Source of the DNA: Clostridia bacterium
GTDB lineage: Bacteria; Bacillota; Clostridia; Oscillospirales; CAG-272
DNA: 53,687 bases
Assembly: GCA_017507985.1 (NCBI GenBank)
Contig: JAFVZV010000052.1
Span: 1 to 53,687, forward strand
Reading direction: 5' to 3'
Shown here piece after piece: positions 3,599 through 51,133 of this stretch. Below the pieces are notes generated by a model. The model did no database searches. It was not told the DNA's origin and saw only the letters and a list, made by a program, of their open reading frames with translations. Within the stretch, counting starts at the first letter, position 1; each line of letters begins with the position of its first letter. The position numbers were made by a program, and so were the translations under genes.

Positions 3599-3627
3599 TT
3601 TACAATTTTGTCCGTTTATGCTATAAT
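3599..3627 (+). promoter_or_regulatory. Putative SigA promoter for the uxuA operon (TTTACA-17-TATAAT)
   Basis: TTTACA at 3599-3604 and TATAAT at 3622-3627, about 70 nt upstream of the uxuA ATG. Confidence 0.55.
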
Positions 3628-3698
3628 GAAGACAATGGGAAAGTATGGGCAAACGGTCGCCCATTTTCCAAAACGAATGAAGATAAGGAGAAATTCTC

Positions 3699-4742: not shown

Positions 4743-4766
4743 TTGCCGGTAAAGGAAGGTATAACT

Positions 4767-5591
4767 ATGAATAACGTTTGTGTTGTCACCGGTGCAGGCG
4801 GTGTGCTTTGTGCCGCATTTGCAAAAGAAATGGCAAAAAAGGGCTACGCTGTGGCTCTGCTTGATATCAACGAGACGGCCGCTGCTGCTGTTGCCGACGA
4901 GATCGTCGCCGAGGGCGGCGTTGCCAAGGCCTATAAGACCAACGTACTGGACCGCGAGATACTGGAAAACGTTCACGCACAGATCCTTGCCGATCTTGGC
5001 AAGTGCCAGATCCTCATCAACGGCGCGGGCGGCAACAACCCCCGTGCAACCACCACACACGAGTACTACGAGGAGGGTGACATCGATCGCGATGACATCA
5101 CCACCTTCTTCAACCTTGACAAGGGCGGCTTTGATTTCGTTTTCGACCTGAACATCAAGGGCGTTTTGCTCCCCACCCAGGTATTCGCACGCGATATGAT
5201 CGGCGGCGAAGGCTGTTCTATTTTGAACATCTCTTCCATGAACGCTTACACGCCCTTGACCAAGATCCCCGCCTACAGCTCGGCTAAGGCAGGTGTTTCC
5301 AACTTTACTCAGTGGCTGGCCGTTCACTTTGCAGGCGCAGGCATCCGCGTCAACGCCATCGCTCCCGGCTTCTTTGCCACCAATCAGAACAGAGCCCTGC
5401 TGTTCAACGAGGACGGCACGCCCACTGCACGCACGGGTAAGATCCTGGCCGCTACGCCCATGAAGCGCTTCGGCGAGGCAGACGAGCTGCTGGGTGCTCT
5501 GGACTTTTTGACTGATCCTGCAAAGTCGGGCTTCGTCACGGGTGTTATCCTGCCCGTTGACGGCGGCTTCTCCGCTTACTCGGGTGTATAA
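4767..5591 (+). CDS. SDR family oxidoreductase, likely D-mannonate/fructuronate oxidoreductase type
   Basis: ATG at 4767 behind AAGGAAGG; the ORF-track start at 4743 is a TTG extension. Rossmann motif VVTGAGGVLC and catalytic YSSAK. Sits immediately after uxuA. Confidence 0.8.
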   Translation: MNNVCVVTGAGGVLCAAFAKEMAKKGYAVALLDINETAAAAVADEIVAEGGVAKAYKTNVLDREILENVHAQILADLGKCQILINGAGGNNPRATTTHEYYEEGDIDRDDITTFFNLDKGGFDFVFDLNIKGVLLPTQVFARDMIGGEGCSILNISSMNAYTPLTKIPAYSSAKAGVSNFTQWLAVHFAGAGIRVNAIAPGFFATNQNRALLFNEDGTPTARTGKILAATPMKRFGEADELLGALDFLTDPAKSGFVTGVILPVDGGFSAYSGV

Positions 5592-5604
5592 CGGAGGCAA
5601 TTTT

Positions 5605-8472: not shown

Positions 8473-8502
8473 CCATTGAATTTGAGCAGGAGAATGACTT
8501 GC

Positions 8503-24795: not shown

Positions 24796-26277
24796 TCAGC
24801 TCTCCGCAGGCGGTTGTCCGTCACCCTCGGCAACAAGCACCTCATCCTGTTTCTTTTTTTGCTTCAAAGCAACAACAACGGCATCTATGCCGATGATGGT
24901 GAATACCATCAAAATCAACAGAATCTTAGCCTTCTGCTGGGTCTGACGGGCGCGCAGGGCACTCTCGTTGTTTTGATTGTTTTCATTTTCCGTTCCCGGT
25001 CCGGGCGTGGGAGGCAGAGGAAGCTGCTGTTCGCCATCGTCAGGAATATCCTCCGGAGGATTTTCGGGAGGGTTATCAGGGTTGTCATCAGGCGTATCAT
25101 CCGGCTTTTCTTCACGTGCGATGGGCGTGGCGCCCAGGATCAGATTTTCAATGGATCGGGGGGCAGAAAAGTAGATATTATCCACACGGAAGGTCCAGAC
25201 ATTACCCTTGGCTTGCGTAATATCTAAAGTATGGAAACGAAGATAATTGATCGCCGCCATGTTCGGAGCTCCATCACACGTACTTGCTGCTGCGATCGGT
25301 AATCGAATATGATTCCACCCCTCGTGCAGGACATATTTGTCCAGCGACCAACAGTACTCCTGGTGGTCACACGTTCCGGAAGACGTGATCTCAAACTGAA
25401 TGGCATATCGGCAGTGCTCAAACGCACTAAGATCCGACACATATACGTCCATTTCAACGTGAGTCGCACCCGTAGCATTCATGGGCTCATATGTTTTTTG
25501 CGAAACCAAATGTCTCTGCTCGGGCAATACCACTTGGTATTGAATACTAGCCGTTCCCTGCTTCTTATTGGCTGTGTCGCACAACGGAGGAGCGGCATAT
25601 CCGGCATCTCCGATTCCCGACCAACCGTCTGCAGTATCACACATATCCACAGTACGCAGCTTATGGTATTCGACAATTGTTGCCGTGATATTATCGATCT
25701 TGATCTCAACATCTTCAAGATCTTCCGTCGGATTGACATGGAAGAATTGCAGACAAAAATAGTTTAGGTTTGTATCCTTGAAGGACCGATTGATGGCTTC
25801 ATTGACCGGCAAGCTGATGCGATACCATCCACTTTCCTGAATGCCGCTGAAGGCATCCTCATACCAGGTAATCAACTCGCTATCCGGTGACTTTGAGGAA
25901 CCAAAATCCAAAGCAATGATCTGCGAGGCGGTCAACAGTGCAGGATCGGAAATATAAAAGTCAAACGAAAATGCTCCTACGCCGCTGACATCGACATCAT
26001 CAAACGTCGCGCGCACCGACAAAATGGCATTGCTGTCTTGCGCCACATCCAACGTGACCGATACACAGCCCTCGCCCTGCGTGAAATCCTCGGTATCCAG
26101 AGCCAATTCACCGTCAGCCGTCCAGCCGTCCAGTGTTTCAGCTCCGTTTGCGACAGTCTCCGGCAGTGCAGAGGTCTGCGAGGATTGTTGTGCGGATACC
26201 GTCGGAAGGGGAAGCACACACAAAATCATAAAACAAAGAAATAGTCCCAATATGCGTCGTGCCGGTTTCATTTGCAC
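24796..26277 (-). CDS. Secreted, C-terminally membrane-anchored protein with two tandem jelly-roll/CBM-like modules and a Pro/Asp/Glu-rich stalk
   Basis: Signal peptide ending VSA-QQ. Two roughly 175-aa repeats share DGW..., ...D(V/F)Y(I/V)SD..., GW(Y/N)(R/H)I(S/R)LP, NY(F/L)..., DNI. The stalk EEKPDDTPDDNPDNPPENPPEDIPDD is followed by a TM helix ILLILMVFTIIGIDAVVVAL. Confidence 0.7.
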   Translation of the reverse strand: MQMKPARRILGLFLCFMILCVLPLPTVSAQQSSQTSALPETVANGAETLDGWTADGELALDTEDFTQGEGCVSVTLDVAQDSNAILSVRATFDDVDVSGVGAFSFDFYISDPALLTASQIIALDFGSSKSPDSELITWYEDAFSGIQESGWYRISLPVNEAINRSFKDTNLNYFCLQFFHVNPTEDLEDVEIKIDNITATIVEYHKLRTVDMCDTADGWSGIGDAGYAAPPLCDTANKKQGTASIQYQVVLPEQRHLVSQKTYEPMNATGATHVEMDVYVSDLSAFEHCRYAIQFEITSSGTCDHQEYCWSLDKYVLHEGWNHIRLPIAAASTCDGAPNMAAINYLRFHTLDITQAKGNVWTFRVDNIYFSAPRSIENLILGATPIAREEKPDDTPDDNPDNPPENPPEDIPDDGEQQLPLPPTPGPGTENENNQNNESALRARQTQQKAKILLILMVFTIIGIDAVVVALKQKKKQDEVLVAEGDGQPPAES

Positions 26278-27079: not shown

Positions 27080-28936
27080 TTATCCTTTGGATTTTCTCGT
27101 CATTATCATCTCGGTCACGCGCAACTTAGCCGCGCCGTACGGAACAAGCAGCATCTCGCGTGCTTCACCTTGAGCAACGGCTGAATTTGCCTTTTCAGCG
27201 CTGACATTATCATAACCATCGGCAAAATCCCAATCCACCGGAGCCATACTTGCCTTCAGAGCGATCCGAGGCGCAGATGCCGAGAAGGGATATTCGTTGC
27301 CCTCCCCCAAGCAAGGCTCAAGCGTCTTGCTTGCAAAGCCATATCGCCATTCACTCTTGGGCGTCAGTTCATAATCGCAGTAGGGGAATTTGCGCTCCAC
27401 GCCGTCGCGGGTGTATTCCTTCATATGATACTCCGCCTCGATGGGCAAGGCGAACACCAACGGACCGTAGGCAGCCACATACACGCCGTTTGGACGTTTG
27501 ACCAAATGAGGCTCATCTTTCAAGATGATCTCCACAACGCTTTCCCCCTCCCATGCGCGATCAATCACAAGATAGTCGCCCATGCGAAGCGCCTTCTGAC
27601 CGTCGGTCCTGGCCGCAGCACTCTTAGCCCAGGACGGTACACGGATCTTCAATGGGAACGTTACCTGACTCTGCACGCTCACGTGAATGGATGCATTCAG
27701 GCGGAAAGGATACTCGGACACGTTCTCTATCGTAACCGCAACACCGTTGACGGCAGTGGTCAGTTTGCAGGGAACAAGGTGCGCGCAGACGATCGCGCCG
27801 TCGTCGTGCTGATAAGCGTTCATCGCAAATTTAGGCCAAGCCTGATTAAAGTTAGAGGTACAGCAACCAAAGCCGGGCTCAAGACCAAACAGCCCCGACT
27901 CGCCGTTATTGGTACGGAAGATGGGCTTGTTGGGATATTTTTCGCAGGCGATCTGGTTGACCAACTGGTCATACTGATGCGTCCACATATCGTCGCTGAT
28001 GGCGGCCGGCAACGCGTTGAAGGCCGCCTTTTCTACACGATCGGCCCATACGGCATTGCCCGTAGCGGTATACAGCGTTTCGCAGGAATACATCAGCTCA
28101 GCAATGGAGCAGAGCTCAAAGCCGTGCGTGTTGCCAATGCCCGCCAGACATTCGTCGCCTGTGATAGTGCCGACGGCCGTGCCGTTGTATTTTTCCAGGA
28201 TGCCCCAGAGATACGCAGGATCGTCCTGCACTGTCACGCTTTCCTCGCCAAGCAGCTGCTTGACCAGCGCACCGTATTTGATCATCATGTTCAGATTAAC
28301 GACGTGCGTTTCCAGCGTCCAGATATTCAAAGGACGCACCCAACGCTCGGTCAAGGCGGTGTAGTCCGTTCCCTGCTCGCGTAAGAGCCTTGCCAGTGAG
28401 AGCAAATATTCCTCGCCCGTGCGCTCATAGATGTAGGCAATGGGAATGAGTGCCTCGAACCAACGGAATTTGCCCCAATCCTTGAGCTTGACCGTTCCAT
28501 TGCTCATCAGCTCGTAAAGGCAGCGCAGCGCGCGGCAAAGGCCATCGTAGGCGCGCTTGTCTGCCGTGAAGTCACAGTACAGCGCCAGTACCTTGCATAC
28601 AAGCTGATACGCCCAAACGTCATAATCCTTGCGCGCTTCTTTTGAACAAGGACAGATCCAACCGTCAGCACACTGACGATCAAGAATGCCGTCAACATAT
28701 CGTTTCGCACGCGCTTTCATATCCTCATCGTCAAGCAACCAGGCCAGCGGAATGAAGCCGTCAAGCCAGTAGGGCACACGCTCCCAGCCATCGCGGTCAC
28801 CGCCGATCCAGGCGCTATCACGGATATCGGGCCAGATCTTATCCAGATTGCCCGACAGGCCGTCGGCCTGGATGCGAAGCTGACGATGCAGCCAGCCTGT
28901 GGGCTTGAGGTAATTGGCAGAAAAAAGATGTAACAT
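27080..28936 (-). CDS. GH127/GH146-like (DUF1680, beta-L-arabinofuranosidase-type six-hairpin) glycoside hydrolase, cytoplasmic
   Basis: 618 aa with no signal peptide. GFELCSIAE and GFGCCTSNFNQAW resemble the Cys-containing GETCAS and FGCACCPANIAR blocks of HypBA1-type enzymes, as I recall them. Confidence 0.6.
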   Translation of the reverse strand: MLHLFSANYLKPTGWLHRQLRIQADGLSGNLDKIWPDIRDSAWIGGDRDGWERVPYWLDGFIPLAWLLDDEDMKARAKRYVDGILDRQCADGWICPCSKEARKDYDVWAYQLVCKVLALYCDFTADKRAYDGLCRALRCLYELMSNGTVKLKDWGKFRWFEALIPIAYIYERTGEEYLLSLARLLREQGTDYTALTERWVRPLNIWTLETHVVNLNMMIKYGALVKQLLGEESVTVQDDPAYLWGILEKYNGTAVGTITGDECLAGIGNTHGFELCSIAELMYSCETLYTATGNAVWADRVEKAAFNALPAAISDDMWTHQYDQLVNQIACEKYPNKPIFRTNNGESGLFGLEPGFGCCTSNFNQAWPKFAMNAYQHDDGAIVCAHLVPCKLTTAVNGVAVTIENVSEYPFRLNASIHVSVQSQVTFPLKIRVPSWAKSAAARTDGQKALRMGDYLVIDRAWEGESVVEIILKDEPHLVKRPNGVYVAAYGPLVFALPIEAEYHMKEYTRDGVERKFPYCDYELTPKSEWRYGFASKTLEPCLGEGNEYPFSASAPRIALKASMAPVDWDFADGYDNVSAEKANSAVAQGEAREMLLVPYGAAKLRVTEMIMTRKSKG

Positions 28937-28960: not shown

Positions 28961-29704
28961 TCATTTGAATTCGGTCACGCCATCCGTCAGATAGACGTGG
29001 GTGCGCAAAATGGTATATTCGCTCGTCATATCGCCCTCGGGCAACAGGCCAAAGCGTTCACGCAGCGCGCGAATGAGATATTCGGGATTCAGATAGTCCG
29101 AGCCCGACACACACAGCGTCGCGCGGATTCGAAGCTCGTCGTTCTCTACGCTCGAGTCAAGCGAGCGAATGAGGGTAGTAATATCCACCTGACGGATGCC
29201 CGACTTGGACTTTTTGTCCATCATCAAGGGCGAGGTCGTCAGATAAGTTTTGATCTCGTCGGCAAGCGAAGGGGACAATCCCTGCGTTCGCAGGCGAATA
29301 TCGTACGCCGCCCAGATAATATCGGCAAAGGCCGATCCCTGAGGCACAGCGTATACGTCCAACACGTAAAGCTCGTCGGTCAGTGCACCGTTCAGACGGT
29401 CCTTGATCTCCTCACAGCTCATATCGCGATCAATGCGCAGATCAAGATATTCGCAAAGGCTCTCAGCGCCAACACTCAGCGGCAGACCGAACGTCATCTT
29501 GGCATGAGGATTGAAGCCCTTAGTGTACCACATAGGAATGCCCGCGCGGACCAGCACGCGGCTGATGGTACGCTGCAGATCGAGATGCGAAATGTATTGC
29601 AGGTTACCTATCTTGCGAAATTTGACGCGCACGGTACGCGGCTGCTCCAAGGCAGGATATGCCTCTTTGGGCTTGCGATTTACGATTTGCTGTTCGGACA
29701 GCAT
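28961..29704 (-). CDS. TIGR03936 (DUF2344) radical-SAM-associated protein
   Basis: 247 aa. VRVKFRKIGNLQYISHLDLQRTISRVLVRAGIPMWYTKGFNPHAKM is characteristic of the family. Overlaps the end of the radical SAM gene. Confidence 0.8.
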   Translation of the reverse strand: MLSEQQIVNRKPKEAYPALEQPRTVRVKFRKIGNLQYISHLDLQRTISRVLVRAGIPMWYTKGFNPHAKMTFGLPLSVGAESLCEYLDLRIDRDMSCEEIKDRLNGALTDELYVLDVYAVPQGSAFADIIWAAYDIRLRTQGLSPSLADEIKTYLTTSPLMMDKKSKSGIRQVDITTLIRSLDSSVENDELRIRATLCVSGSDYLNPEYLIRALRERFGLLPEGDMTSEYTILRTHVYLTDGVTEFK

Positions 29705-31575
29705 GCGCGCTCACCTCCCCACTTATTTGCGCCGCAACCACTGCACGCTTCGCGACAGTTGGGCGTTGTAGCGGCCTTATAAGCGCGCTCACGCTCGCGC
29801 TTGAGAAATGCTTTAGTCACGCCGCAGTCAATAATATCCCATGGCAGTACCTCGTCAAGCCCGTACGCACGATTGGCGTAAAAGGCCGGATCAATGCCCG
29901 TATCGGCAAACACCGACATCCATGCATCATAATCAAAGTATTCCGACCAGGCATCAAATTTGAAGCCACGTCGGCAAGCCTCCTCCAGCGCCTTGCCCAA
30001 ACGGCGGTCGCCGCGTGCCAGCACAGCTTCGATGCGGCAGGTAGGAGCATCATGATGATTATACTTGATCTTGCGATCGGTCACGCAAGTACCGACGAAA
30101 GCCTGCTTGCGGCGCATCTCCTCCAGCGTGTCCTGCGCCTCCCATTGGAAGGGCGTGAACGGCTTGGGAATAAAGGGAGAGACGCTGATGGTCACCTGTG
30201 GCGGACGTGCTTTATTGCGATTGGGATTTTTGTAATATTCGTCAATGACGCGATGCGCCAGCGCAGGGATTTCGGCAAGATCGGCATCCGTTTCGGTCGG
30301 GTGTCCCTGCATAAAGTACAGCTTTATTTGATTTTTACCCGCTTCAAAAGCGACGTTGACTGCTCGCATCAAATCTGCCTCGTCAAGGTTTTTATTGATT
30401 ACGTCGCGCAGTCTCTGTGAACCCGCCTCTGGTGCAAAGGTGATGGACGATGCACGAATAGAAGTTACCTTGTCCATCAGCTCCTTGGTAAAGGAGTCGG
30501 CACGCAACGAGGGCAATGACAAATTGACCATATTAGGATTGGTCCATTCGAGCAGCTTGTCCGTCAGCTCGCCCACACGTGTGTAATCACTGATGGACAG
30601 CGAGGACAGTGAAAGCTCCTCATATCCTGTGGTGTCAAAAATCTCGCGCGCCTGGCAGTTGATCACATCGGGCGTTTTTTCGCGCACGGGGCGATAGACC
30701 ATGCCTGCCTGGCAGAAGCGGCAGCCACGGATACAGCCGCGACCAACCTCGACCGTGATACGGTCCTGCACCGTTTCAATATAGGGCATAACCACCGTTT
30801 TCGGAAAATACGCCCGGTCCAGATCCTGAATAATCCGCTTTTCGATTTTCGTGGGAATATCATCGTAAATGGGGGTGTAGGCCTCGATCGTTCCGTCCTC
30901 ATGATAGCTCACGCGATACAGCGAAGGGACGTACACGCCGGGAATGGTACGAGCCGCCTCGTGCAGAAAATCCGCACGGGTATAGCGCCCTTCGTCCTTC
31001 ATCCGGATGTACAATCGCACGATCTCGGGAAGCATTTCCTCGCCCTCGCCAATATTGAACAGATCAAAGAAATCTGCCACAGGCTCGGGATTATACGCGC
31101 AGGGGCCGCCGCCGATCACGAGAGGATGCTCTTCGCAACGGTCCTCGGCACGCAACGGAATATGCGCAAGCGACAGCATATTAAGCACGGTCGTGTAGCA
31201 CATTTCATATTGGAGCGTGAATCCAAGGAAGTCAAATTCACGCACGGCATCGCCGCTTTCCAGCGCGCACAGAGCAAGATCGTGTCCGATCATCTGCTCT
31301 TGCATATCCACCCAAGGCGCAAATACACGCTCGCACCAAATATCTTCGTGGCTGTTGAGGGCACCGTAAAGAATACGCATACCGAGATTGGACATACCGA
31401 TCTCGTAGCTATCGGGAAAAGCAAACGCAAATCTTGCCTTGACCGTCGCCTTATCCTTTACGATTTGCCCATACTCACCGCCGGCATACCGACCGGGCTT
31501 GGAGATGGATTTGAGCAACGTGCTGCTGTAGCGCGCGCCGTTGTTACGATTCTCAATTTCTTGTGTCATTTTCAC
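29680..31575 (-). CDS. TIGR03960-type B12-binding-domain radical SAM protein
   Basis: 631 aa with the CxxxCxxC cluster motif in GRGCIRGCRFCQAG and an N-terminal B12-binding-like region. Paired with the TIGR03936 gene. Confidence 0.85.
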   Translation of the reverse strand: MKMTQEIENRNNGARYSSTLLKSISKPGRYAGGEYGQIVKDKATVKARFAFAFPDSYEIGMSNLGMRILYGALNSHEDIWCERVFAPWVDMQEQMIGHDLALCALESGDAVREFDFLGFTLQYEMCYTTVLNMLSLAHIPLRAEDRCEEHPLVIGGGPCAYNPEPVADFFDLFNIGEGEEMLPEIVRLYIRMKDEGRYTRADFLHEAARTIPGVYVPSLYRVSYHEDGTIEAYTPIYDDIPTKIEKRIIQDLDRAYFPKTVVMPYIETVQDRITVEVGRGCIRGCRFCQAGMVYRPVREKTPDVINCQAREIFDTTGYEELSLSSLSISDYTRVGELTDKLLEWTNPNMVNLSLPSLRADSFTKELMDKVTSIRASSITFAPEAGSQRLRDVINKNLDEADLMRAVNVAFEAGKNQIKLYFMQGHPTETDADLAEIPALAHRVIDEYYKNPNRNKARPPQVTISVSPFIPKPFTPFQWEAQDTLEEMRRKQAFVGTCVTDRKIKYNHHDAPTCRIEAVLARGDRRLGKALEEACRRGFKFDAWSEYFDYDAWMSVFADTGIDPAFYANRAYGLDEVLPWDIIDCGVTKAFLKRERERAYKAATTPNCREACSGCGANKWGGERACCPNSKS

Positions 31576-34561
31576 TCTTTTTTTCCTGTTCGTTTATCAT
31601 ATTTTTGCGAGACAGCAACACGCAAGGAATGCACCACACGCACTGCAGCACTGCGGTCAACAGCACCGCCATGGGATCGATCATATCGAAGAACATCAAT
31701 CCCGCGCTCAAAAGTGCCCCCAGCAGCAGTCCCACATAGTATACAAGCTTGACTCGACGGTCATTATCTGCAAGGCGATGGCAAGCCGTCACAGCCCTCG
31801 CGATATCGCGGGCACTGCGGGTCGCAATCAGACCGCTGTCTACAACGCTTGATTCAACTGCCTTTTCAAAGTGGACCGGCTTGATCACACGCACGGGTGC
31901 GATTCCCGGCTCGCGGCTGCGTGCTAAGAATTCAGCATGGATACAGGGGTCATAGCTTTCAATCGCAACAGCCGTACGGTTGTTTGCCAGCTCTGCGACC
32001 ATATGCTCAAAGCGCCCTGAGATACGGTAATCGATCTCATAGCCAAGACGCAGCTTGCCCTCAAATGCAAGGTACAAAATACAGCTTTCCACGTGTCTGC
32101 GCACCAACAGCTCTGCCGTCTCACTCGGTACACGAATGCCGTTTTTGATCATAAACGCAGACGTTCCCGCCAAGATGTGCACTTTACCGTCAATGCGCGC
32201 CTCCACGCCCTCGTCCATCACGCGCAAGATCTCGACGCGGTCCTCATACGTTTCCTCGGACAGATCCGAGGTCGTTACGTTGCGTAACGTGCCACCCAAC
32301 GTGCGGAACAGTCGCTTGGCGTATCGGATATATTTTCTTGTGTCGCCGCCACCCTTAATGGTGATCTCGGTCGAGCTCTTGGAACGGAACATTTCCGTCT
32401 CGTCAAACAGCAAAATGCTGTCGGTCGCGTACTGATCCACCGCGCCATCACCAACAATGGCACAGCCTTGTTTGGCAAGGCTGACCGAAGCGAGTAGCTT
32501 GGGATAGGTATACGCGATCAATGCCGATGCAGGCAAGGTCAATTGCAGCGTGAGCATAAATGCAGTAAATGCATGATACAAATCATGCTTCAAAAGCAAT
32601 GTCACCACGCCCATAACCACGGCGATGAGCAAGGACACCATCAAGACAGACGAGAGTGCCCGACAGCGCGTGCTACCTTGGCCTGTACGCTGAAAATAGC
32701 CGCCGATCTGCTCGGTACGGCGAACACGGCGCAAGCTCAGATCCGCATCGTCGTTGATGATCTTAACAATATGTCCGTCACGAATGACCTTTTTCTTTTT
32801 TGCCTCCATATCGGACAGGGCAATCTTTCGCGAGCGTGCGCTGACGACGGAAAAGGTCATCATTTCACTTTTGATTTTCATTCGCTCCCCGATTGCCAGC
32901 AAAACCAGCATAAGAGCCGTTGGCAAATTGAGCATGACGCCGCACACGGGAGCAAACAAGCCGGGCACGTCATATAACACAGTCAATATGACCAAAATTG
33001 CGGGAAGGGTCGCAGGCGAGGGGGAAAATCGGAACAGATCCGCAACTCCCTGCTTGAGCAAGGGGAAAGAAAACAGCGCTGTCAAGCTTAGCAAAATCAA
33101 ACCGATGGCGCTATACATTCCCGAGGTGGGAAGGATAGCAAAGGTATCGGGCAAATAGCCGCGAAACAGTGGGAACAGATCCGTCAGCGCGACCATCAGC
33201 GTCAACAGCACTGTAAACGTCAGTCGTGCAGAAGCACGGCGCACATGCTTGCGATAGGCATCGGTGATCTGTTTATCCTGTGCGTGTCCGCTGTATTCTT
33301 CGCCGTTGCAGGCGTAAACACGATTCATACGGCGATGCTGCTCGCGGTCATCCGTTTGTCTGTTTTTGAGTGTTTCGATTCGTTGCGATCCGACCTTGGC
33401 TGACAAATTGCTTTCATATCCAAGATCAAGCAACAGCTCTACATCCTCGTCGCTGAGCGTTTTCTCACGGCGATCCCGACCAAAGGCAGGCGCACCGCCA
33501 AGCGGCGTTACGTTACCACGGGCACCCGTGCGTTCAGCAGCAATCGCATCCAATGGCGACTGTTTGGGACGCATTACATCCGTCTGTGCCCCCGCGCGCG
33601 CATTGGCATTTCTTGCCGCATCCAAGGGCGAAGAGACGGGAGCCACCGAGGATTTGTCAGCGAGCTTGGGCTCTTGCTCATCGGCAATCTCTCCTGCTTT
33701 CATCGTCGTTTGATCTATTTGCGGCAATTCTTCATCCTTGTCCAGTACAATATCCCCCTCACGCAAGGCGGAGTCTTGCTCCGCTATGTCTGCGGCGCTT
33801 GAAGGCTGTTCTTCAAACAGTCCCTCGGGAGCAAAGCCTTCAACAGGCAGATAACCATCTTCCATTGAAGATGCGCCTATCGTTCCCTGCTCTCCTTGCG
33901 CAGTAACGGTCATGCTGTCTTCGTCCGTCGCGCCGACCTCATCGCTCACAGCTTCGGGCGAGGCCGCAAAGGAATCCGACGGGATTCGGAGCTGCTCGAC
34001 CACTTCTTGGGGTACCTGTGAGGACAGATCGCCAAGGTCAGTCTCCTCGGTAACGAAAACATCTTCGATCTGCGGCTGCTCCTCACCGATCACCTCATCG
34101 GGAAGCTCCACCTGAGTGTCGGGATGTGGCAACTCTTGCTCAATCACCGTAGCATCGGTTGACGTTTCGACCGTCTGCTCCACTTGGGACTCCTCTGTCG
34201 CTTCAGCAGACAATAACTGCTCCTCGGGAGCATCCACATCGGAAAGGACTACCGTATCGCGATCGGCAATGGATATCTGCTCCATTGCTTGTTCTTTTTT
34301 TGCGGGAGCTTTTTTTCTTCTCCCCTTGGTATGCTTTTTGGCGTTCTCTTTGGGCGTAGCTTCTTGTTGCGGCACAACCTCTCCAAGCAATGCCGCCATA
34401 TAAGAATCAAATGCCGCGATCTCATCGTCCTCTTCCCTTGAACGAGCAGAAGCCGAATCATCGGCAAATACGTCGTCAGGCGAACCGTCTTCCTCGTTAT
34501 CGAGCGAAGCGCGAAGTGCCTGCAACAGCTCGTCGGTAGAGTCTTTGGATAATCGATTCAT
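31553..34561 (-). CDS. P1B-type (heavy-metal) ATPase homologue with degenerate catalytic motifs and a long acidic, low-complexity N-terminal region
   Basis: ATG at 34561 behind AAAGGAG; the ORF-track start at 34582 is a GTG. The C-terminal roughly 530 aa are collinear with CopA-type ATPases, but DKTGT reads DETEM, CPC reads LPA, TGDN reads ESYD, and GDGxNDxP and TGES are absent. The first roughly 470 aa are rich in D/E/Q/S/P/V. Confidence 0.7.
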   Translation of the reverse strand: MNRLSKDSTDELLQALRASLDNEEDGSPDDVFADDSASARSREEDDEIAAFDSYMAALLGEVVPQQEATPKENAKKHTKGRRKKAPAKKEQAMEQISIADRDTVVLSDVDAPEEQLLSAEATEESQVEQTVETSTDATVIEQELPHPDTQVELPDEVIGEEQPQIEDVFVTEETDLGDLSSQVPQEVVEQLRIPSDSFAASPEAVSDEVGATDEDSMTVTAQGEQGTIGASSMEDGYLPVEGFAPEGLFEEQPSSAADIAEQDSALREGDIVLDKDEELPQIDQTTMKAGEIADEQEPKLADKSSVAPVSSPLDAARNANARAGAQTDVMRPKQSPLDAIAAERTGARGNVTPLGGAPAFGRDRREKTLSDEDVELLLDLGYESNLSAKVGSQRIETLKNRQTDDREQHRRMNRVYACNGEEYSGHAQDKQITDAYRKHVRRASARLTFTVLLTLMVALTDLFPLFRGYLPDTFAILPTSGMYSAIGLILLSLTALFSFPLLKQGVADLFRFSPSPATLPAILVILTVLYDVPGLFAPVCGVMLNLPTALMLVLLAIGERMKIKSEMMTFSVVSARSRKIALSDMEAKKKKVIRDGHIVKIINDDADLSLRRVRRTEQIGGYFQRTGQGSTRCRALSSVLMVSLLIAVVMGVVTLLLKHDLYHAFTAFMLTLQLTLPASALIAYTYPKLLASVSLAKQGCAIVGDGAVDQYATDSILLFDETEMFRSKSSTEITIKGGGDTRKYIRYAKRLFRTLGGTLRNVTTSDLSEETYEDRVEILRVMDEGVEARIDGKVHILAGTSAFMIKNGIRVPSETAELLVRRHVESCILYLAFEGKLRLGYEIDYRISGRFEHMVAELANNRTAVAIESYDPCIHAEFLARSREPGIAPVRVIKPVHFEKAVESSVVDSGLIATRSARDIARAVTACHRLADNDRRVKLVYYVGLLLGALLSAGLMFFDMIDPMAVLLTAVLQCVWCIPCVLLSRKNMINEQEKKSENDTRN

Positions 34562-34600
34562 ACAAAGAACGTCTCCTTTCACTTTATTGAAGGGCGCGTA

Positions 34601-35548
34601 TCATCCGTCGGTACGCTCTGCCGCCTTTTTTTCTCTTGCCGCGGCATGTTGGCGGGCAGCTTCCGCAAGCAAAATCGAGGCCGCGGTCGACACGTTGAGC
34701 GAATTGACCTGCCCACGCATGGGAATGGAAATGATTGCGTCACATTTTTGTTTGAGCAAGGCAGACACGCCATTGCCCTCACTGCCAAAGATAATCGCAC
34801 AAGGCCCTGTCAGATCAGTCTTGTCATACGACTGTCCACCTGCCTCGGCAGCATACACCCATACGCCCTGCTTTTGCAATTCCTGCACCGTCTGGGCAAG
34901 ATTGGCAACCTTGGCAACCGCCAGATGCTCGATCGCGCCCGCACTGGCCTTGGAGACCAGCGGTGTCAATCCTACGGCACGACGCTTGGGCAGGATCAGG
35001 CCATGAGCGCCAAGACCCTCGGCGCAACGGATCAGCGCACCAAGATTATATGGATCGGTGATGCCGTCCGCAATCGCAATGATGGGATGCTCGCCACGCT
35101 CACGTGCGATAGCAAGGATATCCTCTACGTCAACGTATTCTTTTTCTGCAGCCATAGCAATAATGCCTTGATGAGGGGCAAAGCCTGCAATGGCGTCCAG
35201 CTTGGCGCGATCGACCTCGACCACGGGAATCTTCTTTTCCAAGGCCTGTGCAACAAGCACAACAATAGAGCCCTCGCGCTCACCGCGCTGAACGAGCAGC
35301 TTGTCAATGGTGCGCTCGCTGTGCAGCAGCTCACGAACCGCATTGCGGCCGATCACGATACCACAGCTCTCCTGATCGTCCGTCATTGCGCTCACATTTT
35401 CCTTTGCCTGCGCGCTGCGATCGACGTGATCGTATTTGGATGCGCCGCGATAGTCGCGGCTCGGACGGCTGTCGCGGCGGTCGTTACGGTCGCGACGGGG
35501 CTTGCCGCCCTGCGATTTATTCTTTCTGTCTTTTTCCATATTGCTCAC
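34601..35548 (-). CDS. rlmB: TrmH/SpoU family 23S rRNA 2'-O-methyltransferase (RlmB-like) with an Arg/Asp-rich N-terminal extension
   Basis: SpoU substrate-binding region (GRNAVRELL) and C-terminal methylase knot motifs (IFGSEGNGVS, IPMRGQVNSLNVS). Start uncertain: GTG at 35548 or ATG at 35539. Confidence 0.8.
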   Translation of the reverse strand: MSNMEKDRKNKSQGGKPRRDRNDRRDSRPSRDYRGASKYDHVDRSAQAKENVSAMTDDQESCGIVIGRNAVRELLHSERTIDKLLVQRGEREGSIVVLVAQALEKKIPVVEVDRAKLDAIAGFAPHQGIIAMAAEKEYVDVEDILAIARERGEHPIIAIADGITDPYNLGALIRCAEGLGAHGLILPKRRAVGLTPLVSKASAGAIEHLAVAKVANLAQTVQELQKQGVWVYAAEAGGQSYDKTDLTGPCAIIFGSEGNGVSALLKQKCDAIISIPMRGQVNSLNVSTAASILLAEAARQHAAAREKKAAERTDG

Positions 35549-35569: not shown

Positions 35570-37030
35570 TCAAACAACGTTCCAGTCCTCGATCAGCTTG
35601 GCCAAAACACGCCAAACGCGCTCGACCGAGTCAAGAAAGAGCACTTCATCCGGCGAATGGATGCCACGCATATTCGGGCCGATCGAAATGATATCCATAT
35701 CGGGCAGTTGCTTTTTGATATAGCCACATTCCAACCCTGCGTGAATGGCAACGACGTGCATCACATCGCCCACAACCGCCTCGTACGCGGCTACATAAGC
35801 ATCACGTACCGCCGATTCGGACGCGTATTCCCAGCCCGGGTAACGGCTGTGGTGGTTGATCTGTCCGCCAAGCGCGGCAGACAGCGCACCAAGCGATGAG
35901 ACCGTACCGTCCAAACGGCTCTCACGCGATGCGCGTGAGGTAAACGTCATACAGACTGCCTTGTCCGTCGTTCTCAAAATGCCAAGATTGCGAGAGTATT
36001 CCACAAGTCCCGCCACCTCGGCGTTCATGGCAAGCACGCCGCACGGCGCGTTGGCAAGCAAGCCCAGCACACGGGCGGTAGCGGCTTCGCTCATCATACC
36101 CGTGATGGCAGCCGCTTCCTCATTGGTCAATCGCTCGCAAACAATACGGCAGTTTTCATCTTCCTGGACCAGCTCGCCCGAGATCTCGTCGGCAAGACCA
36201 AGCAGCGCCATGCTCGTCATAGCCACGCTGGGTACAGCGATCACAGCAACAGCCTCACGGGTGATGGCATTATCCTTGGAGCCACCCTCAATGCTGACCA
36301 GACGAACGTCGGAAAGTGCGGCAAGCAACCGGCCAAGCAAAAGATTGGCGTTGGCACGTCCGGTGTGAATATCCGCACCGCTGTGACCGCCACAAAGTCC
36401 CGTCAGCGAAACTCGACAAAGCTCGCGGTCGCCAAGGGGCTCGCGATCAACAGCAAGGCTCAAATCGCTCCGAATACCGCCTGCACAGCCCACCGTAACG
36501 GTGTCCTCTTGCTCGCTGTCGAGGTTGATCATGTGCTTGGCCTTCAGAAGCGAATAGTCAAATGCAATGGCGCCGCCCATGCCCGTTTCCTCTTCAGTGG
36601 TAAACAAACATTCAATGGCCGGATGACTGTCCAACTCACCGTCAAGCATCGCCAGCATCATAGCTACGGCAATGCCGTTGTCCGCGCCAAGCGTCGTGCC
36701 GTCGGCACGCAGACAATTGCCCTCGAGTATCAGACGAATGGGATCACGCTCAAAATCGTGTACCGTATCGTTATTCTTCTCGCACACCATATCGGTGTGT
36801 CCTTGAAAAAGCAACGGCGCATGATCTTGTCTTCCCTTCGTTGCAGGCTTTTTGATCAATACGTTATTGTTGGCATCGCGCACACAGTCCAGACCGCGTT
36901 CCTTGGCAAAGCGGCACAGATAATCTGCCACGCCCGCCTCGTTGCCCGAGCCGCGTGGAATGGCGCTGATCTGTTCAAAAAAAGCAAATACGTTAGCAGG
37001 TTTAAAACCGCGAATTACTTGTTCACTCAT
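35570..37030 (-). CDS. pepD: Aminoacyl-histidine dipeptidase (PepD, M20C family)
   Basis: Start at MSEQVIRGFKPANVFAFFEQISAIPRGSGNE (ATG at 37030). Motifs HTDMV, GADNG and EEETGMGGA. Confidence 0.88.
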   Translation of the reverse strand: MSEQVIRGFKPANVFAFFEQISAIPRGSGNEAGVADYLCRFAKERGLDCVRDANNNVLIKKPATKGRQDHAPLLFQGHTDMVCEKNNDTVHDFERDPIRLILEGNCLRADGTTLGADNGIAVAMMLAMLDGELDSHPAIECLFTTEEETGMGGAIAFDYSLLKAKHMINLDSEQEDTVTVGCAGGIRSDLSLAVDREPLGDRELCRVSLTGLCGGHSGADIHTGRANANLLLGRLLAALSDVRLVSIEGGSKDNAITREAVAVIAVPSVAMTSMALLGLADEISGELVQEDENCRIVCERLTNEEAAAITGMMSEAATARVLGLLANAPCGVLAMNAEVAGLVEYSRNLGILRTTDKAVCMTFTSRASRESRLDGTVSSLGALSAALGGQINHHSRYPGWEYASESAVRDAYVAAYEAVVGDVMHVVAIHAGLECGYIKKQLPDMDIISIGPNMRGIHSPDEVLFLDSVERVWRVLAKLIEDWNVV

Positions 37031-37055
37031 ACACTCTATCCTTTCGCTATGTTGA

Positions 37056-38144
37056 TCAGAGGCGGTCGCGGCGCGCGCGCGCCAGATTGATGGTTCCTTC
37101 GGGCAGTTGCTTATAGTTGCGAAGCGCAATGCCCGTTCCCTTTGCCACACAGCAAACGGGGTCCTCTGCCACTCGAACGGGAACGCCCGTTACCTTGCAG
37201 ATCAGCTTATCAAAGCCGTTTACCATACTGCCACCGCCCGTCATGATAATACCATACTTAAGAATATCGCCGAGCAGCTCGGGCGGTGTGCGTTCGATCA
37301 CAGAGCAAACAACGTCCAAAATCGCGCTGACAGGCTCTGCCATCGCCTCCAGCATTTCTTTGGAGGACAGCGTGACCGTTTGGGGCAGACCCGTCTGGGC
37401 ACTTCGTCCGCGCACTTCAACGCTGCGAACTTGTTTGTGGGTATACAACGCACCGATGCGTTGCTTGATCAGCTCTGCCGTTTGAATACCGATCAGCACC
37501 CCATGCTCTCGTTTAACATAGCGAGCGATCGCATCGTCCAGCTTTTCACCCGCGATGCGGACAGACTCGGAAACGACCACGCCTCCCATCGAAATCACGG
37601 CGATGTCGGTCGTACCGCCGCCGATGTCGATGATCATACGGCCGACGGGTGCATCAATATCCACACCTGCGCCAAGTGCCGCCGCCACGGGTTCTTCCAT
37701 CAGATAAACCTTACCCGCTCCTGCTTCCCTTGCCGCATCGACCACAGCACGTTCCTCTACCTCGGTCACGCCCGAGGGAACGCAGATCATAACGCGGGGG
37801 GGCAACAGCATATGTCCGCAAGCGTTACGGATACAATACTGCAGCATCCGAAGCGTCACGTCATATTGACTGATAACACCATCACGCAACGGGCGAATGG
37901 TTTCCAAATTGGCAGGTGTTCTGCCGATGAGGGCCTGCGCCTCGTTACCGACCGCAACGATCTGATCTGTAGTCTTATCCACGGCAACGACGCTGGGCTC
38001 CTTGAGGACAACGCCCTTGCCTTCCACGTAAACCAAGGTATTAACCGTCCCGAGGTCAATACCGACGTTACGGCGCAAATTGAGTCCGCTGATCCATTTT
38101 TTTATACGGGCGAAAATGCCTCTCGCCCCTCCTACTTTAGCCAT
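37056..38144 (-). CDS. mreB: Rod shape-determining protein MreB/Mbl
   Basis: Actin-fold motifs GIDLGTVNT, DIGGGTTD and GIIMTGGGS. ATG at 38144 lies 6 nt after GGAG. Confidence 0.92.
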   Translation of the reverse strand: MAKVGGARGIFARIKKWISGLNLRRNVGIDLGTVNTLVYVEGKGVVLKEPSVVAVDKTTDQIVAVGNEAQALIGRTPANLETIRPLRDGVISQYDVTLRMLQYCIRNACGHMLLPPRVMICVPSGVTEVEERAVVDAAREAGAGKVYLMEEPVAAALGAGVDIDAPVGRMIIDIGGGTTDIAVISMGGVVVSESVRIAGEKLDDAIARYVKREHGVLIGIQTAELIKQRIGALYTHKQVRSVEVRGRSAQTGLPQTVTLSSKEMLEAMAEPVSAILDVVCSVIERTPPELLGDILKYGIIMTGGGSMVNGFDKLICKVTGVPVRVAEDPVCCVAKGTGIALRNYKQLPEGTINLARARRDRL

Positions 38145-38203
38145 ACACATCTCCTTGTGGGTGTTGTTGACATACTTATCCAGTTTAATATATAGTTAAT
38201 TAT

Positions 38204-43353: not shown

Positions 43354-45972
43354 TTATTTCAGATAAATGACGGACGGACGATGCGCGGCATTATATTGAT
43401 ATACCGTCACCATATTGCCTTTTTTGACCTCTTCCAGTCCCTCTTGTTGATTCTCACGGATAAAGTTGACACCCGTCAGTACGACCTCACCGCCAAGAAC
43501 AAAGCTCTTTCCGTGCCCGATATGTCCCGATTCACAGTTCAAAAGGAACAGATCACTTCTGGCCGTTTCCAAAAACGTATTGGCACCGTAGTGGAACACG
43601 TGACGCAATTGAACGTCATCGCTATCCTGTATCTTGACCAGCGTCATACGAGGGCTCAGATGCGTGTCGATCAGCTCATAAACGCGCGAGTGGTCTGTCA
43701 TCCAGTCGGGATGAAGCACCGTCTGTGCCTTGATACCGATATTATGATACGTACCGTTGGTATGGATTCGGGTGATCGCGCCGTTTTTAGCATTGAACAC
43801 GCCAATGCCGTTATCATACACCGTCATGGAAATACGGTCAACGATAAAACCGTTCGCGCCGTCAATACAAATGCCGCGCGATGCCGCAACCAGACACAGC
43901 TCTGTCGCAAACGTATTGTTACCCTTGCAACGCACGAAATACGCATATTCATCGGGCGATTCTGTCAGCGTGTTGGACGAGCTGACACCATTGTTGGGAT
44001 AATAAACCGTCATGCCCATCACACCACTCTGATTGCCCGCCACCGTAATGGTTGCCGTGTCGCTCTCCTTACCATCTTCGCCGTGCGTAACCAAAAGAAC
44101 GGTACCTTTGAACGAGTCGCTGCCCTTCTGGGGATTCTGATATGCCCCCATGATGACCGTCTTTTCTCCGACCGTTACTGGTTTGGTCAGACGATAAATG
44201 CCTGCCGGCAGGTAAACGATACCACCGCCTGCCGCCGACGCCTCGTCCAAGGCCTGTTGCAAAGCCGACGAAACATCACTTTTGCCCGTCGCATCCGCGC
44301 CGTAATCGGCCAAATTGAACAGCGCTGTCGCAGCAATGGTAGGACGAACGGAAATGGGCGTATAGTCGGTATCCATGGCCACGCTCCCCGAAGACAGCGT
44401 ATGCACGTGATCGCTGATTTCCCCCTTGATGGTACAATTCAGCATATATACGTTGGGAACACTTTCCTTGGAGGGGGGATCATTCTGAATCGCAATTTCG
44501 GATGCATCAATGGTACTATTTGTCAGCAGCAGACCATACGCACCGTTCAAGCCGTGCAATTCCATTCCGATTTTAGCATTCAGAATGGCGATATTGTAGT
44601 AGCTTCCGCAAAGGCCCGCGCGAGTAGGTTCACGGTTATAAATACCTGTAGCAAAGCCGTCCAACGTGATATTTTCATAGGTATCACGGTCGCAGTCGCC
44701 CAGCGAAAGGCCAATGGATCCGTTCTTTTGCATCAGCGCACGAATGTCCGCCTCTGCGGGAGCACCAAATATTTCTCCCGCATTTGCCCAGTACGAGGGC
44801 GAAAAATGTACATCGATCGTCACGCAGATATCAGCACTGTTGTCATTATCCAAACCTCGCCAAAGTGCCGTTCCCTTAACGTTATCCACCGTCAGCATTC
44901 CCTTGGCGCCTTTACCGGTGAAAATTGCATAATAGCTGTTGATAAAGTTACAGTCACGGACCGTGCACATATCGCCGCTCGTTTCCACTGTGGGCATGTA
45001 TTCCACGGGGGCGCTGACCGACTGACCGTCATGGTACAGCGTCACACCCTCCAGTGCACTGCAATTTTTGAGGAGCACTGCGCTGACGCGCTTGAAATCG
45101 CCGTCTTTATCCAGCCAAAGCACCGTGCCACGTGACATATCCCCTTCATCGAGGTCGGCATAAGTACCGCGCAACGTTACGTAGGAGGGCACTTCGAGCT
45201 GCTTGGTGATACGGTACGTTCCCGCCGGCAAATAAACCACGCCGCCACCCAATTTGGCCACATCGTTGATGGCCTCCTGAATGGTGGACGTTGCGTCCCG
45301 TTCACCGCTACGATCGGCAAAATACGGTTCACTCGACAGATCGGCAACGGCAACAAAGGCATCGCCCGTACCGGTCGTAATGACTGCAGGCTGATTTTTC
45401 TCATACGAACGACTCATGTCCACCGGCACCTCCAATGCGGATTGTTCTGCTGCCAGATAACGCGCCAAAAAGTAACGAAGCGCGACCAATGTGTTGGCAT
45501 CATCCGAGCCGACGATCACGATCTTATTGCCGCGAACACCAATGTGATACCAGTTCTGTGCGTTGTCCGTTTTTGCGGCGGCCGCTTCCATCGCCTCGAT
45601 GCTCTCAATACGATTGGTCCGACCGACCAAAATCTCATATTCTGTATTGATAATGGGAGTTTGCTCTTTGGTGTAATCTGTGCTGATTTTGATACCCTTG
45701 AACTTTTTACTCATTGCGGTATACAGCGAGCTGACCTCAAGACGAACCTCCGCTTCTGCGGTCTCAGAACGCAGGATCGTATACTCGGTCGGATTGGCGA
45801 TGCTCACCGTCTCACCATCATCCGGCCATTGCTGTTCGGGCGGCGTATCGCCCTCCTCATCGCCAGGATCATCCGGCGTATTATGGTCACGACACGCGAC
45901 AGCACCGCAAAGACACAGCGCAGCAAGCAGCGCCAACACAAAAAGACGCATTATCCATTGATTTCGTTTCAT
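43354..45972 (-). CDS. Secreted protein with an N-terminal alpha/beta module and two tandem pectate-lyase-superfamily beta-helix modules
   Basis: ATG at 45972 behind AAGGAG. Signal peptide MKRNQWIMRLFVLALLAALCLCGAVAC. Two copies of the helix-start motif are present (DATSTIQEAINDVAKLGGGVVYLPAGTYRI and DVSSALQQALDEASAAGGGIVYLPAGIYRL). The N-terminal module is paralogous to that of the 8503-10221 protein. Confidence 0.75.
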   Translation of the reverse strand: MKRNQWIMRLFVLALLAALCLCGAVACRDHNTPDDPGDEEGDTPPEQQWPDDGETVSIANPTEYTILRSETAEAEVRLEVSSLYTAMSKKFKGIKISTDYTKEQTPIINTEYEILVGRTNRIESIEAMEAAAAKTDNAQNWYHIGVRGNKIVIVGSDDANTLVALRYFLARYLAAEQSALEVPVDMSRSYEKNQPAVITTGTGDAFVAVADLSSEPYFADRSGERDATSTIQEAINDVAKLGGGVVYLPAGTYRITKQLEVPSYVTLRGTYADLDEGDMSRGTVLWLDKDGDFKRVSAVLLKNCSALEGVTLYHDGQSVSAPVEYMPTVETSGDMCTVRDCNFINSYYAIFTGKGAKGMLTVDNVKGTALWRGLDNDNSADICVTIDVHFSPSYWANAGEIFGAPAEADIRALMQKNGSIGLSLGDCDRDTYENITLDGFATGIYNREPTRAGLCGSYYNIAILNAKIGMELHGLNGAYGLLLTNSTIDASEIAIQNDPPSKESVPNVYMLNCTIKGEISDHVHTLSSGSVAMDTDYTPISVRPTIAATALFNLADYGADATGKSDVSSALQQALDEASAAGGGIVYLPAGIYRLTKPVTVGEKTVIMGAYQNPQKGSDSFKGTVLLVTHGEDGKESDTATITVAGNQSGVMGMTVYYPNNGVSSSNTLTESPDEYAYFVRCKGNNTFATELCLVAASRGICIDGANGFIVDRISMTVYDNGIGVFNAKNGAITRIHTNGTYHNIGIKAQTVLHPDWMTDHSRVYELIDTHLSPRMTLVKIQDSDDVQLRHVFHYGANTFLETARSDLFLLNCESGHIGHGKSFVLGGEVVLTGVNFIRENQQEGLEEVKKGNMVTVYQYNAAHRPSVIYLK

Positions 45973-46005
45973 ATCGTTCTCCTTGTTTGAAACTTTCAAT
46001 GCTTT

Positions 46006-50990: not shown

Positions 50991-51030
50991 AAAGGGCAAG
51001 GAAAAGCTGTTGCTTTTCCTTGCCCTTTTT
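50991..51030 (+). terminator. Intrinsic terminator
   Basis: 17-bp perfect hairpin AAAGGGCAAGGAAAAGC-TGTT-GCTTTTCCTTGCCCTTT followed by TT. Confidence 0.85.
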
Positions 51031-51133
51031 CGTATTCAGAGTAGCACTCAAAATAATCTCAACCATCGGTTTCTTGCTTTTTCTCTCATTCGGTGCTATA
51101 CTGAAATCAACAAAAATACAAGGAGCATTACTT

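Follow-up and report, generated by a model that had tools for sequence, protein, structure and literature searches.

Few membrane enzymes are as well understood as the P-type ATPases, whose signature motifs are regarded as practically invariant. Their P-domain has the HAD fold, and the superfamily includes KdpB, the P1A subunit of KdpFABC, which depends on partner proteins and is fully active, with canonical DKTGT and TGES motifs and 7 transmembrane (TM) helices. Some functionally uncharacterised P-type ATPase (FUPA) families, such as FUPA24 (CtpH/CtpI), have unusually long N-terminal segments (PMC3573892). Here we describe a gene in a stretch of 53,687 nucleotides (nt) from a Clostridia bacterium (contig JAFVZV010000052.1 of assembly GCA_017507985.1, analysed over its whole length and hereafter called the window), which lies at 31553..34561 on the minus strand and encodes a protein here called X. 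Profile comparison and structure modelling indicate that X is an evolutionary derivative of a CopA/ZntA-like P1B-type ATPase that has kept the whole pump architecture (MA, MB, M1-M6, a miniature A-domain, and P- and N-domains), and the ATP-driven, thiolate-based metal-pumping cycle is gone by every sequence criterion. No description of X or of any bacterial pseudo-P-type ATPase family was found in the searchable literature, although a prior listing in P-type surveys is possible.

The gene and the regions of its conserved module, numbered in residues from the ATG at 34561, are given below with the evidence for each.

31553..34561, minus strand: whole coding sequence of X, 1002 residues plus stop, a putative P1B-ATPase-derived pseudo-pump (open reading frame (ORF) list, 34 full-length homologues, translation check)
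34573..34580, minus strand: Shine-Dalgarno-like GAAAGGAG, 11 nt upstream of ATG 34561 (sequence)
33230..33460, minus strand: start of the conserved module, three cytosolic helices (LSDEDVELLLDLGYE...) and a pre-MA helix, residues 368-444 (model, conservation across 173 members)
32882..33229, minus strand: TM helices MA, MB, M1 and M2, residues 445-560 (hydropathy, model, hhalign to CopA 186-300, conservation)
32666..32881, minus strand: miniature actuator-like domain with a small beta core, residues 561-632 (hhalign gap, model strands)
32492..32665, minus strand: TM helices M3 and M4, residues 633-690, with LPA instead of CPC (hhalign, column counts)
32357..32491, minus strand: first half of the P-domain, residues 691-735, with FDETEM instead of FDKTGT (hhalign register)
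32012..32356, minus strand: N-domain-like insert, residues 736-850, with GGTL (residues 756-759) instead of SxHPL (hhalign, conservation by region)
31772..32011, minus strand: second half of the P-domain, residues 851-930, with SYDP (residues 869-872) instead of TGDN (hhalign, column counts)
31556..31771, minus strand: TM helices M5 and M6 and the C-terminal tail, residues 931-1002, the last codons overlapping the start of a radical SAM gene (model, hhalign, conservation, translation)

A sequence-only reading of the window had claimed an intact frame and a good ribosome-binding site for this gene, and both claims held, the former by translation on the minus strand and the latter by the Shine-Dalgarno-like element. 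An in-frame GTG at 34582 adjoins that ribosome-binding site in the ORF list, yet it is an unlikely start because all homologues begin with MNRK or MSRK, which favours ATG 34561.

The homology of X is visible only through the NCBIfam model TIGR01525, through profile-profile comparison and through structure. A Pfam scan of X and 22 family members gave no match at all, including to PF00122, PF00702 and PF00403, and PDB sequence searches with the single X sequence and with a profile returned chance matches only. TIGR01525 (heavy metal translocating P-type ATPase) matched X weakly (24.9 bits, E 8e-6, curated cutoff 346), and this weak match recurred in 19 of the 22 family members. The hhalign reference consisted of eight diverse genuine P1B ATPases (E. 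coli CopA and ZntA, a pMOL30 pump, S. aureus CadA, SilP, two enterococcal pumps and a Streptomyces pump), against which a 17-sequence family profile aligned with 97.1% probability (E 7e-11, 400 columns) and a 173-sequence profile with 98.9% (E 1.4e-17, 582 columns), the latter spanning from upstream of MA to M6 of CopA; the homologous part of X comprises residues 368-1002. An AlphaFold2 model of this part reached a mean predicted local distance difference test (pLDDT) score of 80.8 and a predicted template-modelling (pTM) score of 0.78, and the top 50 PDB matches found with Foldseek were all P-type ATPases. The best was LpCopA (4bbj, E 1e-13), followed by 7r0g, 3rfu, ATP7B, HMA4, ZntA and CadA; matches to CopA, ATP7B, HMA4 and ZntA had E values of 1e-13 to 1e-9 at 11-16% identity, and KdpB ranked after the P1B pumps (E 1e-8). 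Hydropathy gave 4+2+2 TM segments, which is the P1B pattern. Taken together, profile-profile comparison and structure search of the predicted model establish the P-type homology and fold of X. The P-type ancestry that the sequence-only reading proposed is thus borne out by hhalign, TIGR01525 and Foldseek alike, as is its CopA/ZntA-type order of TM pairs and domains, on which hydropathy, hhalign and the AlphaFold model agree; the comparison with PF00122 and PF00702 that it suggested produced no Pfam match, and the homology is nonetheless significant by hhalign.

Within this architecture, the motifs of the pump cycle are altered in a register that was read from the profile alignment and from column counts over 173 full-length members with a median identity of 27% to X. 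The phosphorylation motif FDKTGT is replaced by FDETEM (residues 719-724, 32390..32407), in which the Lys, the Gly and the second Thr of DKTGT have been exchanged, and position 720, aligned to the phosphorylated Asp, varies across the family (D 96, E 28, R 18, N 9, A 7, S 4, other 11), so that about 22% of the 173 members carry R, N, A or S there. At the following position X carries Glu (E721, codon 32399..32401, minus strand), where more than 90% of the 22 close relatives in a separate alignment (A1) have Asp. In M4, LPA (within TLPASA, residues 676-678, 32528..32536) aligns to the CPC metal site (within ACPCAL); of the CPx-type motif (CPC, CPH or SPC) that binds metal in P1B pumps, the Pro alone is conserved. 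The TGES region of the P1B A-domain aligns to a gap in X; the earlier estimate of an actuator of about 50 residues without TGES was therefore right about the missing motif and too short for the M2-M3 insert, which measures about 70 residues. Its beta core spans about 45 residues, the model placing strands at its residues 212-253, and K579 of this domain is conserved in 99% of members.

The N-domain-like insert is among the most conserved regions of X, and there LGGTL stands in place of SxHPL, only glycines being left of the SxHP and GxG nucleotide-binding signature (G756, G757 and L759 are 90-97% conserved), and the adenine-binding Glu and His of P1B N-domains align to Phe752 and Gly757 of the family. 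SYDP (within ESYDP, 31946..31957) aligns to LTGDN, the family pattern being [ST]xDP with the S/T and D alone kept. The GDGxND hinge was not detectable in X, since it falls in a 12-column hhalign gap, and hhalign pairs D908-S-G-(I/V) with the (D)VGIAMG strand. Residues 368-444, modelled with pLDDT of 77-94, occupy the place of the HMA domain, which is common but not universal in P1B pumps, and no HMA (CxxC) domain was found with PF00403 in X or in 22 family members, nor any other Pfam match, as the sequence-only reading had anticipated. The degenerate register that it had proposed (DETEM, LPA, SYDP, no TGES and no GDGxND) came out the same from hhalign, and no canonical motif had been overlooked through mis-registration. 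Since X scores below the curated TIGR01525 cutoff of 346 bits and departs from the P1B pumps in the defining DKTGT, TGES, CPx, HP and GDGxND features, it should not be filed as a heavy-metal ATPase.

The loss of these motifs goes together with strong conservation. A first search found 34 full-length relatives of X, and a deep profile search, run on 1.84 billion cluster representatives, gave 3059 hits with E<=1e-3, of which 2434 reached E<=1e-10 and 1083 reached E<=1e-30. X is thus a member of a large family that is widespread in uncultured gut Clostridia. The architecture was taken from the 150 best listed, most of which are full length and share a single plan, a variable N-terminal extension followed by a module of about 620-635 residues; the C-terminal module is about 632 residues long throughout, and the reading frame is intact in all homologues. 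Selection was estimated by the Nei-Gojobori method against the two closest orthologues, giving for the C-terminal module a nonsynonymous divergence (dN) of 0.10 and a synonymous divergence (dS) of 1.2-1.3, with a dN/dS ratio (omega) of about 0.08, and for the N-terminal half a nonsynonymous proportion (pN) of 0.21 versus a synonymous proportion (pS) of 0.70-0.73, with pN/pS of about 0.29 at saturated synonymous sites. Both halves of X are thus under purifying selection, strongly so for the module. This was the dN/dS check called for when the gene was first proposed to be retained rather than decaying, and the low omega together with intact orthologues free of pseudogenisation speaks for retention. 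All named members are called 'hypothetical protein' and come from metagenome-assembled genomes (MAGs) labelled Clostridia, Oscillospiraceae/Ruminococcaceae, Eubacteriales or Bacillota, and two JGI family entries are annotated 'cation transport ATPase'. The GTDB scan reached nine close relatives, all of them MAGs, and no cultured carrier of the family was found in that scan, in a word-indexed search or in three cluster look-ups, which returned MAGs only.

In front of the module lies a tail of about 370 residues, since the conserved module starts at residue 368 (the first TM helix at about residue 445), and about 250 of these residues are predicted to be disordered; the disordered tail of roughly 470 residues that had been proposed earlier has to be shortened accordingly, and it contains four conserved short helical motifs. 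In the full-length model a confident fold begins at about residue 371, preceded by short low-confidence helices at residues 9-21, 46-58, 312-324 and 336-343, all four of which coincide with conserved islands of alignment A1. Residues 100-330 consist of 26% D+E and have a net charge of -50. The features of the tail are the following.

33632..34384, minus strand: acidic low-complexity region, residues 60-310, predicted disordered (pLDDT below 50 throughout in the full-length model)
34499..34537, minus strand: helical motif 1, residues 9-21, TDELLQALRASLD (alignment A1, predicted helix with pLDDT of about 60)
34388..34426, minus strand: helical motif 2, residues 46-58, DEIAAFDSYMAAL (alignment A1, predicted helix)
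34295..34339, minus strand: basic patch KKHTKGRRKKAPAKK, residues 75-89 (alignment A1, translation)
33533..33640, minus strand: motifs 3 and 4, residues 308-343, PVSSPLDAAR ... RPKQSPLDAIAA (nearly invariant in A1, short predicted helices)

The islands of alignment A1 read DSTDELLRALRASL for motif 1, IAAFDSYMAxLLGEV for motif 2, and PVASPLDAAR and RPKQSPLDAxAA for motifs 3 and 4. Across the family the N-terminal extension ranges from 16 to 698 residues (median 347, 24% acidic), and among 161 such extensions 'ELLxxL' near the N-terminus occurs in 44, distant members included, and SP[LIVM][DE] in 46. Motifs 1 and 2 recur in distant members too, as does the K/R-rich patch after motif 2, which the sequence-only reading had already picked out in X and which is present in many members. 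The tail is best described as an acidic disordered linker with short linear motifs, an organisation that would be typical of partner-recruiting regions. At one locus (L025, 5949..6974, plus strand) the N-terminal part of X is a separate ORF of 341 residues between rlmB and a short X of 704 residues; it carries the ELLxxL and FQAQLAAMLGSL motifs, a basic patch and long PEEPIVEE-type acidic repeats, and could represent either a genuine gene split or an assembly frameshift.

X lies within a cluster of genes on the same strand, with recD2-like and comF-like genes further upstream.

34601..35548, minus strand: rlmB, 23S rRNA Gm2251 2'-O-methyltransferase family, 39 nt upstream of X (TIGR00186 215 bits, cutoff 160)
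29680..31575 (start GTG) or 29680..31569 (start ATG), minus strand: TIGR03960 B12-binding-type radical SAM gene (TIGR03960 904 bits)
28961..29704, minus strand: TIGR03936/DUF2344 radical-SAM-associated gene, overlapping the radical SAM gene (NCBIfam/Pfam match)
35570..37150, minus strand: PepD-type M20 dipeptidase gene, upstream
37056..38150, minus strand: mreB/mbl, upstream

The conserved operon of an rlmB-like gene, X, a radical SAM gene and a DUF2344 gene that had been read from the window proved to be conserved, with rlmB present in every context where the upstream gene was visible and the radical SAM gene in 17 of 19. An rlmB/SpoU-type gene lies upstream of X in 10 of 10 called contexts and is directly adjacent (13-48 nt) in eight of them, the exceptions being L025, with its extra 341-residue ORF in between, and L026, with a called gap of about 650 nt; it is also upstream in all seven GTDB loci that reach it. 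The order rlmB-X-TIGR03960-DUF2344 was observed in the window, in L001, L002, L004/L005, L006, L025, L026 and L027 and in nine GTDB loci (mreB-pepD lying upstream in seven of these nine), and holds even at about 23-25% protein identity; L028 ends after X. In most contexts X overlaps the radical SAM gene or sits within 75 nt of it. The overlap noted earlier in the window is real and amounts to 23 nt if the radical SAM gene starts at GTG 31575, as then assumed, or to 17 nt if it starts at ATG 31569, both values occurring among the gene calls in X orthologues. The 17 of 19 refers to contexts showing a downstream gene, and the two most divergent relatives (P0208 and P0210) have a SpoU/RlmB gene 13-18 nt upstream, and downstream the place of the radical SAM gene is taken by an EF-G-like GTPase. 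The invariant partner of X is therefore rlmB, and the radical SAM pair is frequent and not universal.

Co-transcription of the cluster is suggested by overlapping genes and very short spacers. A promoter and terminator scan gave site counts no better than shuffled sequence, with a sigma-70-like site upstream of mreB only and no convincing terminator inside the cluster. A rplJ/rplL or sigH-like gene is nearby in some contexts; this resembles the classical Firmicute rlmB ... rplJL translation-gene neighbourhood, and part of the linkage of X may thus be inherited gene order. None of X, the radical SAM protein and the DUF2344 protein matched a defence system in PADLOC; a search for PDB relatives of the partners returned a generic radical SAM core (9ccb) for the TIGR03960 protein only and none for DUF2344; and no description of the TIGR03960/TIGR03936 (DUF2344) system or of an rlmB plus radical SAM operon was found in the searchable literature.

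Some observations concern the neighbours themselves. The EF-G-like GTPase paralogue (667-670 residues) that follows X at L029 (8572..10575, plus strand) and in the P0210 context is another translation-related neighbour, and TIGR03960 and TIGR03936/DUF2344 are fused into one protein of 869-875 residues in L002 and L025. The RlmB orthologues beside X (window, L001, L002, L004, L006 and L025-L029) have an R/K/N/G-rich, probably disordered N-terminal tail of 13-105 residues, which in the window is R/K/N-rich and 63 residues long; to our knowledge, E. coli RlmB lacks such a tail. Across 10 loci the RlmB tail length correlated with the length of the X N-terminal extension (Spearman 0.72, p 0.02, uncorrected for phylogeny). 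Electrostatic pairing between a basic RlmB tail and the acidic X tail is not supported, since their net charges are uncorrelated and the RlmB tails carry only +1 to +6.

Elsewhere in the window, the annotation includes genes that would fit a plant-polysaccharide-degrading gut Oscillospiraceae organism, judging from their predicted products.

51020..53005 (plus strand), 43354..45999 (minus strand), 8476..10221 (plus strand) and 27080..28936 (minus strand): RHS-repeat protein, two pectate-lyase-fold (rhamnogalacturonase/epimerase-like) proteins and GH127 beta-L-arabinofuranosidase-like protein (window annotation)

Two long ORFs of the window, 3621..5600 and 24796..26277 (both minus strand), had no Pfam match.

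Given the retained architecture, the lost motifs and the conservation, it is reasonable to suggest, with somewhat more confidence than doubt, that X is a non-pumping membrane pseudo-enzyme acting as a scaffold or sensor, whose head binds a ligand, cation or protein and whose tail motifs recruit soluble partners, plausibly products of its own operon. Under this explanation, ATP-driven metal pumping would have been lost and a membrane-embedded pseudo-enzyme would remain; the P/N head would form a very acidic pocket at the former phosphorylation site (D720, D721, E723, D871 and possibly D908) that could bind a ligand, a cation or a partner protein, and the acidic disordered tail, with its four helical motifs and basic patch, would recruit or regulate soluble partners, most plausibly RlmB and/or the radical SAM pair. 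The near-invariance of D721, [ST]869, D871 and K/R894, together with D720 in X, suggests that some ligand- or cation-binding function of the P-domain pocket is likely retained. Column entropy is consistent with a constrained head, the cytosolic P- and N-domains (2.0-2.3 bits) being more conserved than the TM helices (2.5-2.7 bits), and the near-invariant residues of the family besides glycines and prolines are K579, D721, Y845 and D871-P872.

Several points weigh against this scaffold or sensor explanation. The role itself is drawn from catalytic-motif loss and conservation. Residual phosphoryl-transfer chemistry would be another way to account for D720 in X and for D721, [ST]869, D871 and K/R894 across the family. 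Some transport or ion binding would also be compatible with the invariant M4 proline and with the conserved Asn545, Ser679 and Gln973. The constant rlmB adjacency may in part be due to vertical inheritance of gene order among translation genes and not to a functional link, and the match between the RlmB and X tails is weak, extending to lengths and not to charges.

The alternative that survives best, although we hold it to be unlikely, is that X is still an enzyme with a HAD-type aspartyl-phosphate site, working as a membrane phosphatase, a phospho-sensor or a non-canonical pump phosphorylated by something other than classically bound ATP. D721 (or D720) would then be the nucleophile and D/E723 the '+2' acid of a D-x-[DE] motif, with [ST]869 as motif II, K/R894 as motif III and D908 as motif IV. 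The most conserved polar residues of the P-domain could indeed fill these four motifs, since position 721, the Lys position of DKTGT, is Asp in 169 of 173 members (98%) and Glu in four, X included, position 723 is D or E in 80%, [ST]869 and D871 are each conserved in 99%, K/R894 in 97% and D/E908 in 88% (D721, D871 and P872 all reaching at least 97%), and no part of X is more constrained than the P- and N-domains. However, it is D720, a variable position, that hhalign aligns with the nucleophile, rather than D721. The predicted beta strand closes with residue 720, and in P-type and HAD folds the nucleophile occupies just this strand end. X itself, moreover, has Glu at 721. Motif IV is not established either, with GDGxND in a gap and D908-S-G paired with the (D)VGIAMG strand, and when only the P-domain half downstream of SYDP was aligned, the register of K894 and D908 against motifs III and IV was not significant. 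The lack of PF00702 and PF00122 matches in 22 members and the missing TGES dephosphorylation loop and adenine-binding residues also argue against an active site of this kind.

It is also conceivable, though quite doubtful in our view, that X is a passive or secondary transporter or a channel that uses the P1B membrane pathway without ATP coupling, for example to supply the B12-type radical SAM enzyme encoded next to it with an ion or a cofactor. X keeps all eight TM helices, the helix-breaking M4 proline (Pro677) is invariant in 173 of 173 members, the kink Gly505 in MB is 98% conserved, and near the canonical ion site the family conserves Asn545, Ser679 and, in M6, Gln973 and Trp976. Nevertheless, the TM helices are the least conserved parts of X, no TM segment has a conserved Cys, His, Met or acidic ligand across the 173 members, the large and highly conserved cytosolic domains would be unexplained if a pore sufficed, and the two most divergent members have no radical SAM neighbour. 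A decaying pseudogene or an annotation artefact (two merged genes, or a chance ORF in acidic low-complexity sequence) could be imagined from the compositionally biased N-terminal half of very variable length and from its separate 341-residue ORF in L025, but is rejected as next to impossible on the selection and conservation data, given the intact frame and constant module of all homologues, the module dN/dS, the pN well below pS in the N-terminal half, the conserved motifs inside the tail and the confident structure model.

Returning to the scaffold or sensor explanation, a more specific version, which we put forward as a rather improbable speculation, is that this Clostridia-specific family (more than 1000 clusters at 50% identity) uses the former phosphorylation pocket as a poly-carboxylate site that senses a cation or ligand, and tethers translation-related enzymes, namely RlmB and the TIGR03960/TIGR03936 pair, to the membrane through the acidic, motif-bearing tail. 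In that case a former pump would now serve ribosome or RNA modification as a platform for signalling or assembly at the membrane, and we know of no earlier case of a bacterial pseudo-P-type ATPase to which a non-transport role has been assigned. Beyond that, a full pump architecture held under strong purifying selection without its signature motifs is fairly surprising for a superfamily that is defined by motifs, and the family is a natural experiment that may show which tasks a P-type scaffold is capable of once the Post-Albers cycle is gone. Its constant place beside rlmB, and usually beside the TIGR03960/TIGR03936 pair, provides a handle on two other uncharacterised proteins in abundant gut Clostridia. 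The family has no Pfam or NCBIfam model, and building one would correct the annotation of thousands of proteins now called 'hypothetical protein' or, misleadingly, 'cation transport ATPase'.

Compared with known systems, X stands closest to the P1B pumps (CopA, ZntA, CadA and ATP7A/B; TIGR01525; TCDB 3.A.3.5/6), with which it shares a core homologous from MA to M6 (hhalign 98.9%), eight TM helices with a kinked MB, the order of two TM pairs, A-domain, TM pair, P/N domains and TM pair, the helix-breaking M4 proline and the Asp of TGD. It differs from them in its low identity (11-16%), in the change of DKTGT to D(E/D)TEM with a family-wide variable Asp position, in an A-domain without TGES reduced to about 70 residues, in the changes of CPC to LPA and of HP to G(T/P), in the undetectable GDGxND, and in the acidic disordered tail with short motifs that takes the place of the HMA domain. 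KdpB provides the next-best structural matches (E 1e-8), but X differs from it in having eight TM helices and degenerate motifs, and neither KdpA nor KdpC is encoded beside it. With regard to the HAD phosphatases (DxDxT as motif I), the family pattern D721-x-[DE]723 is closer to D-x-D than to DKT, whereas X has no PF00702 match, sits in a full pump architecture and has a motif III/IV register that is not significant by itself. For FUPA24, the C-terminal region is reported to contain the functional P-type motifs (PMC3573892), whereas X has lost them.

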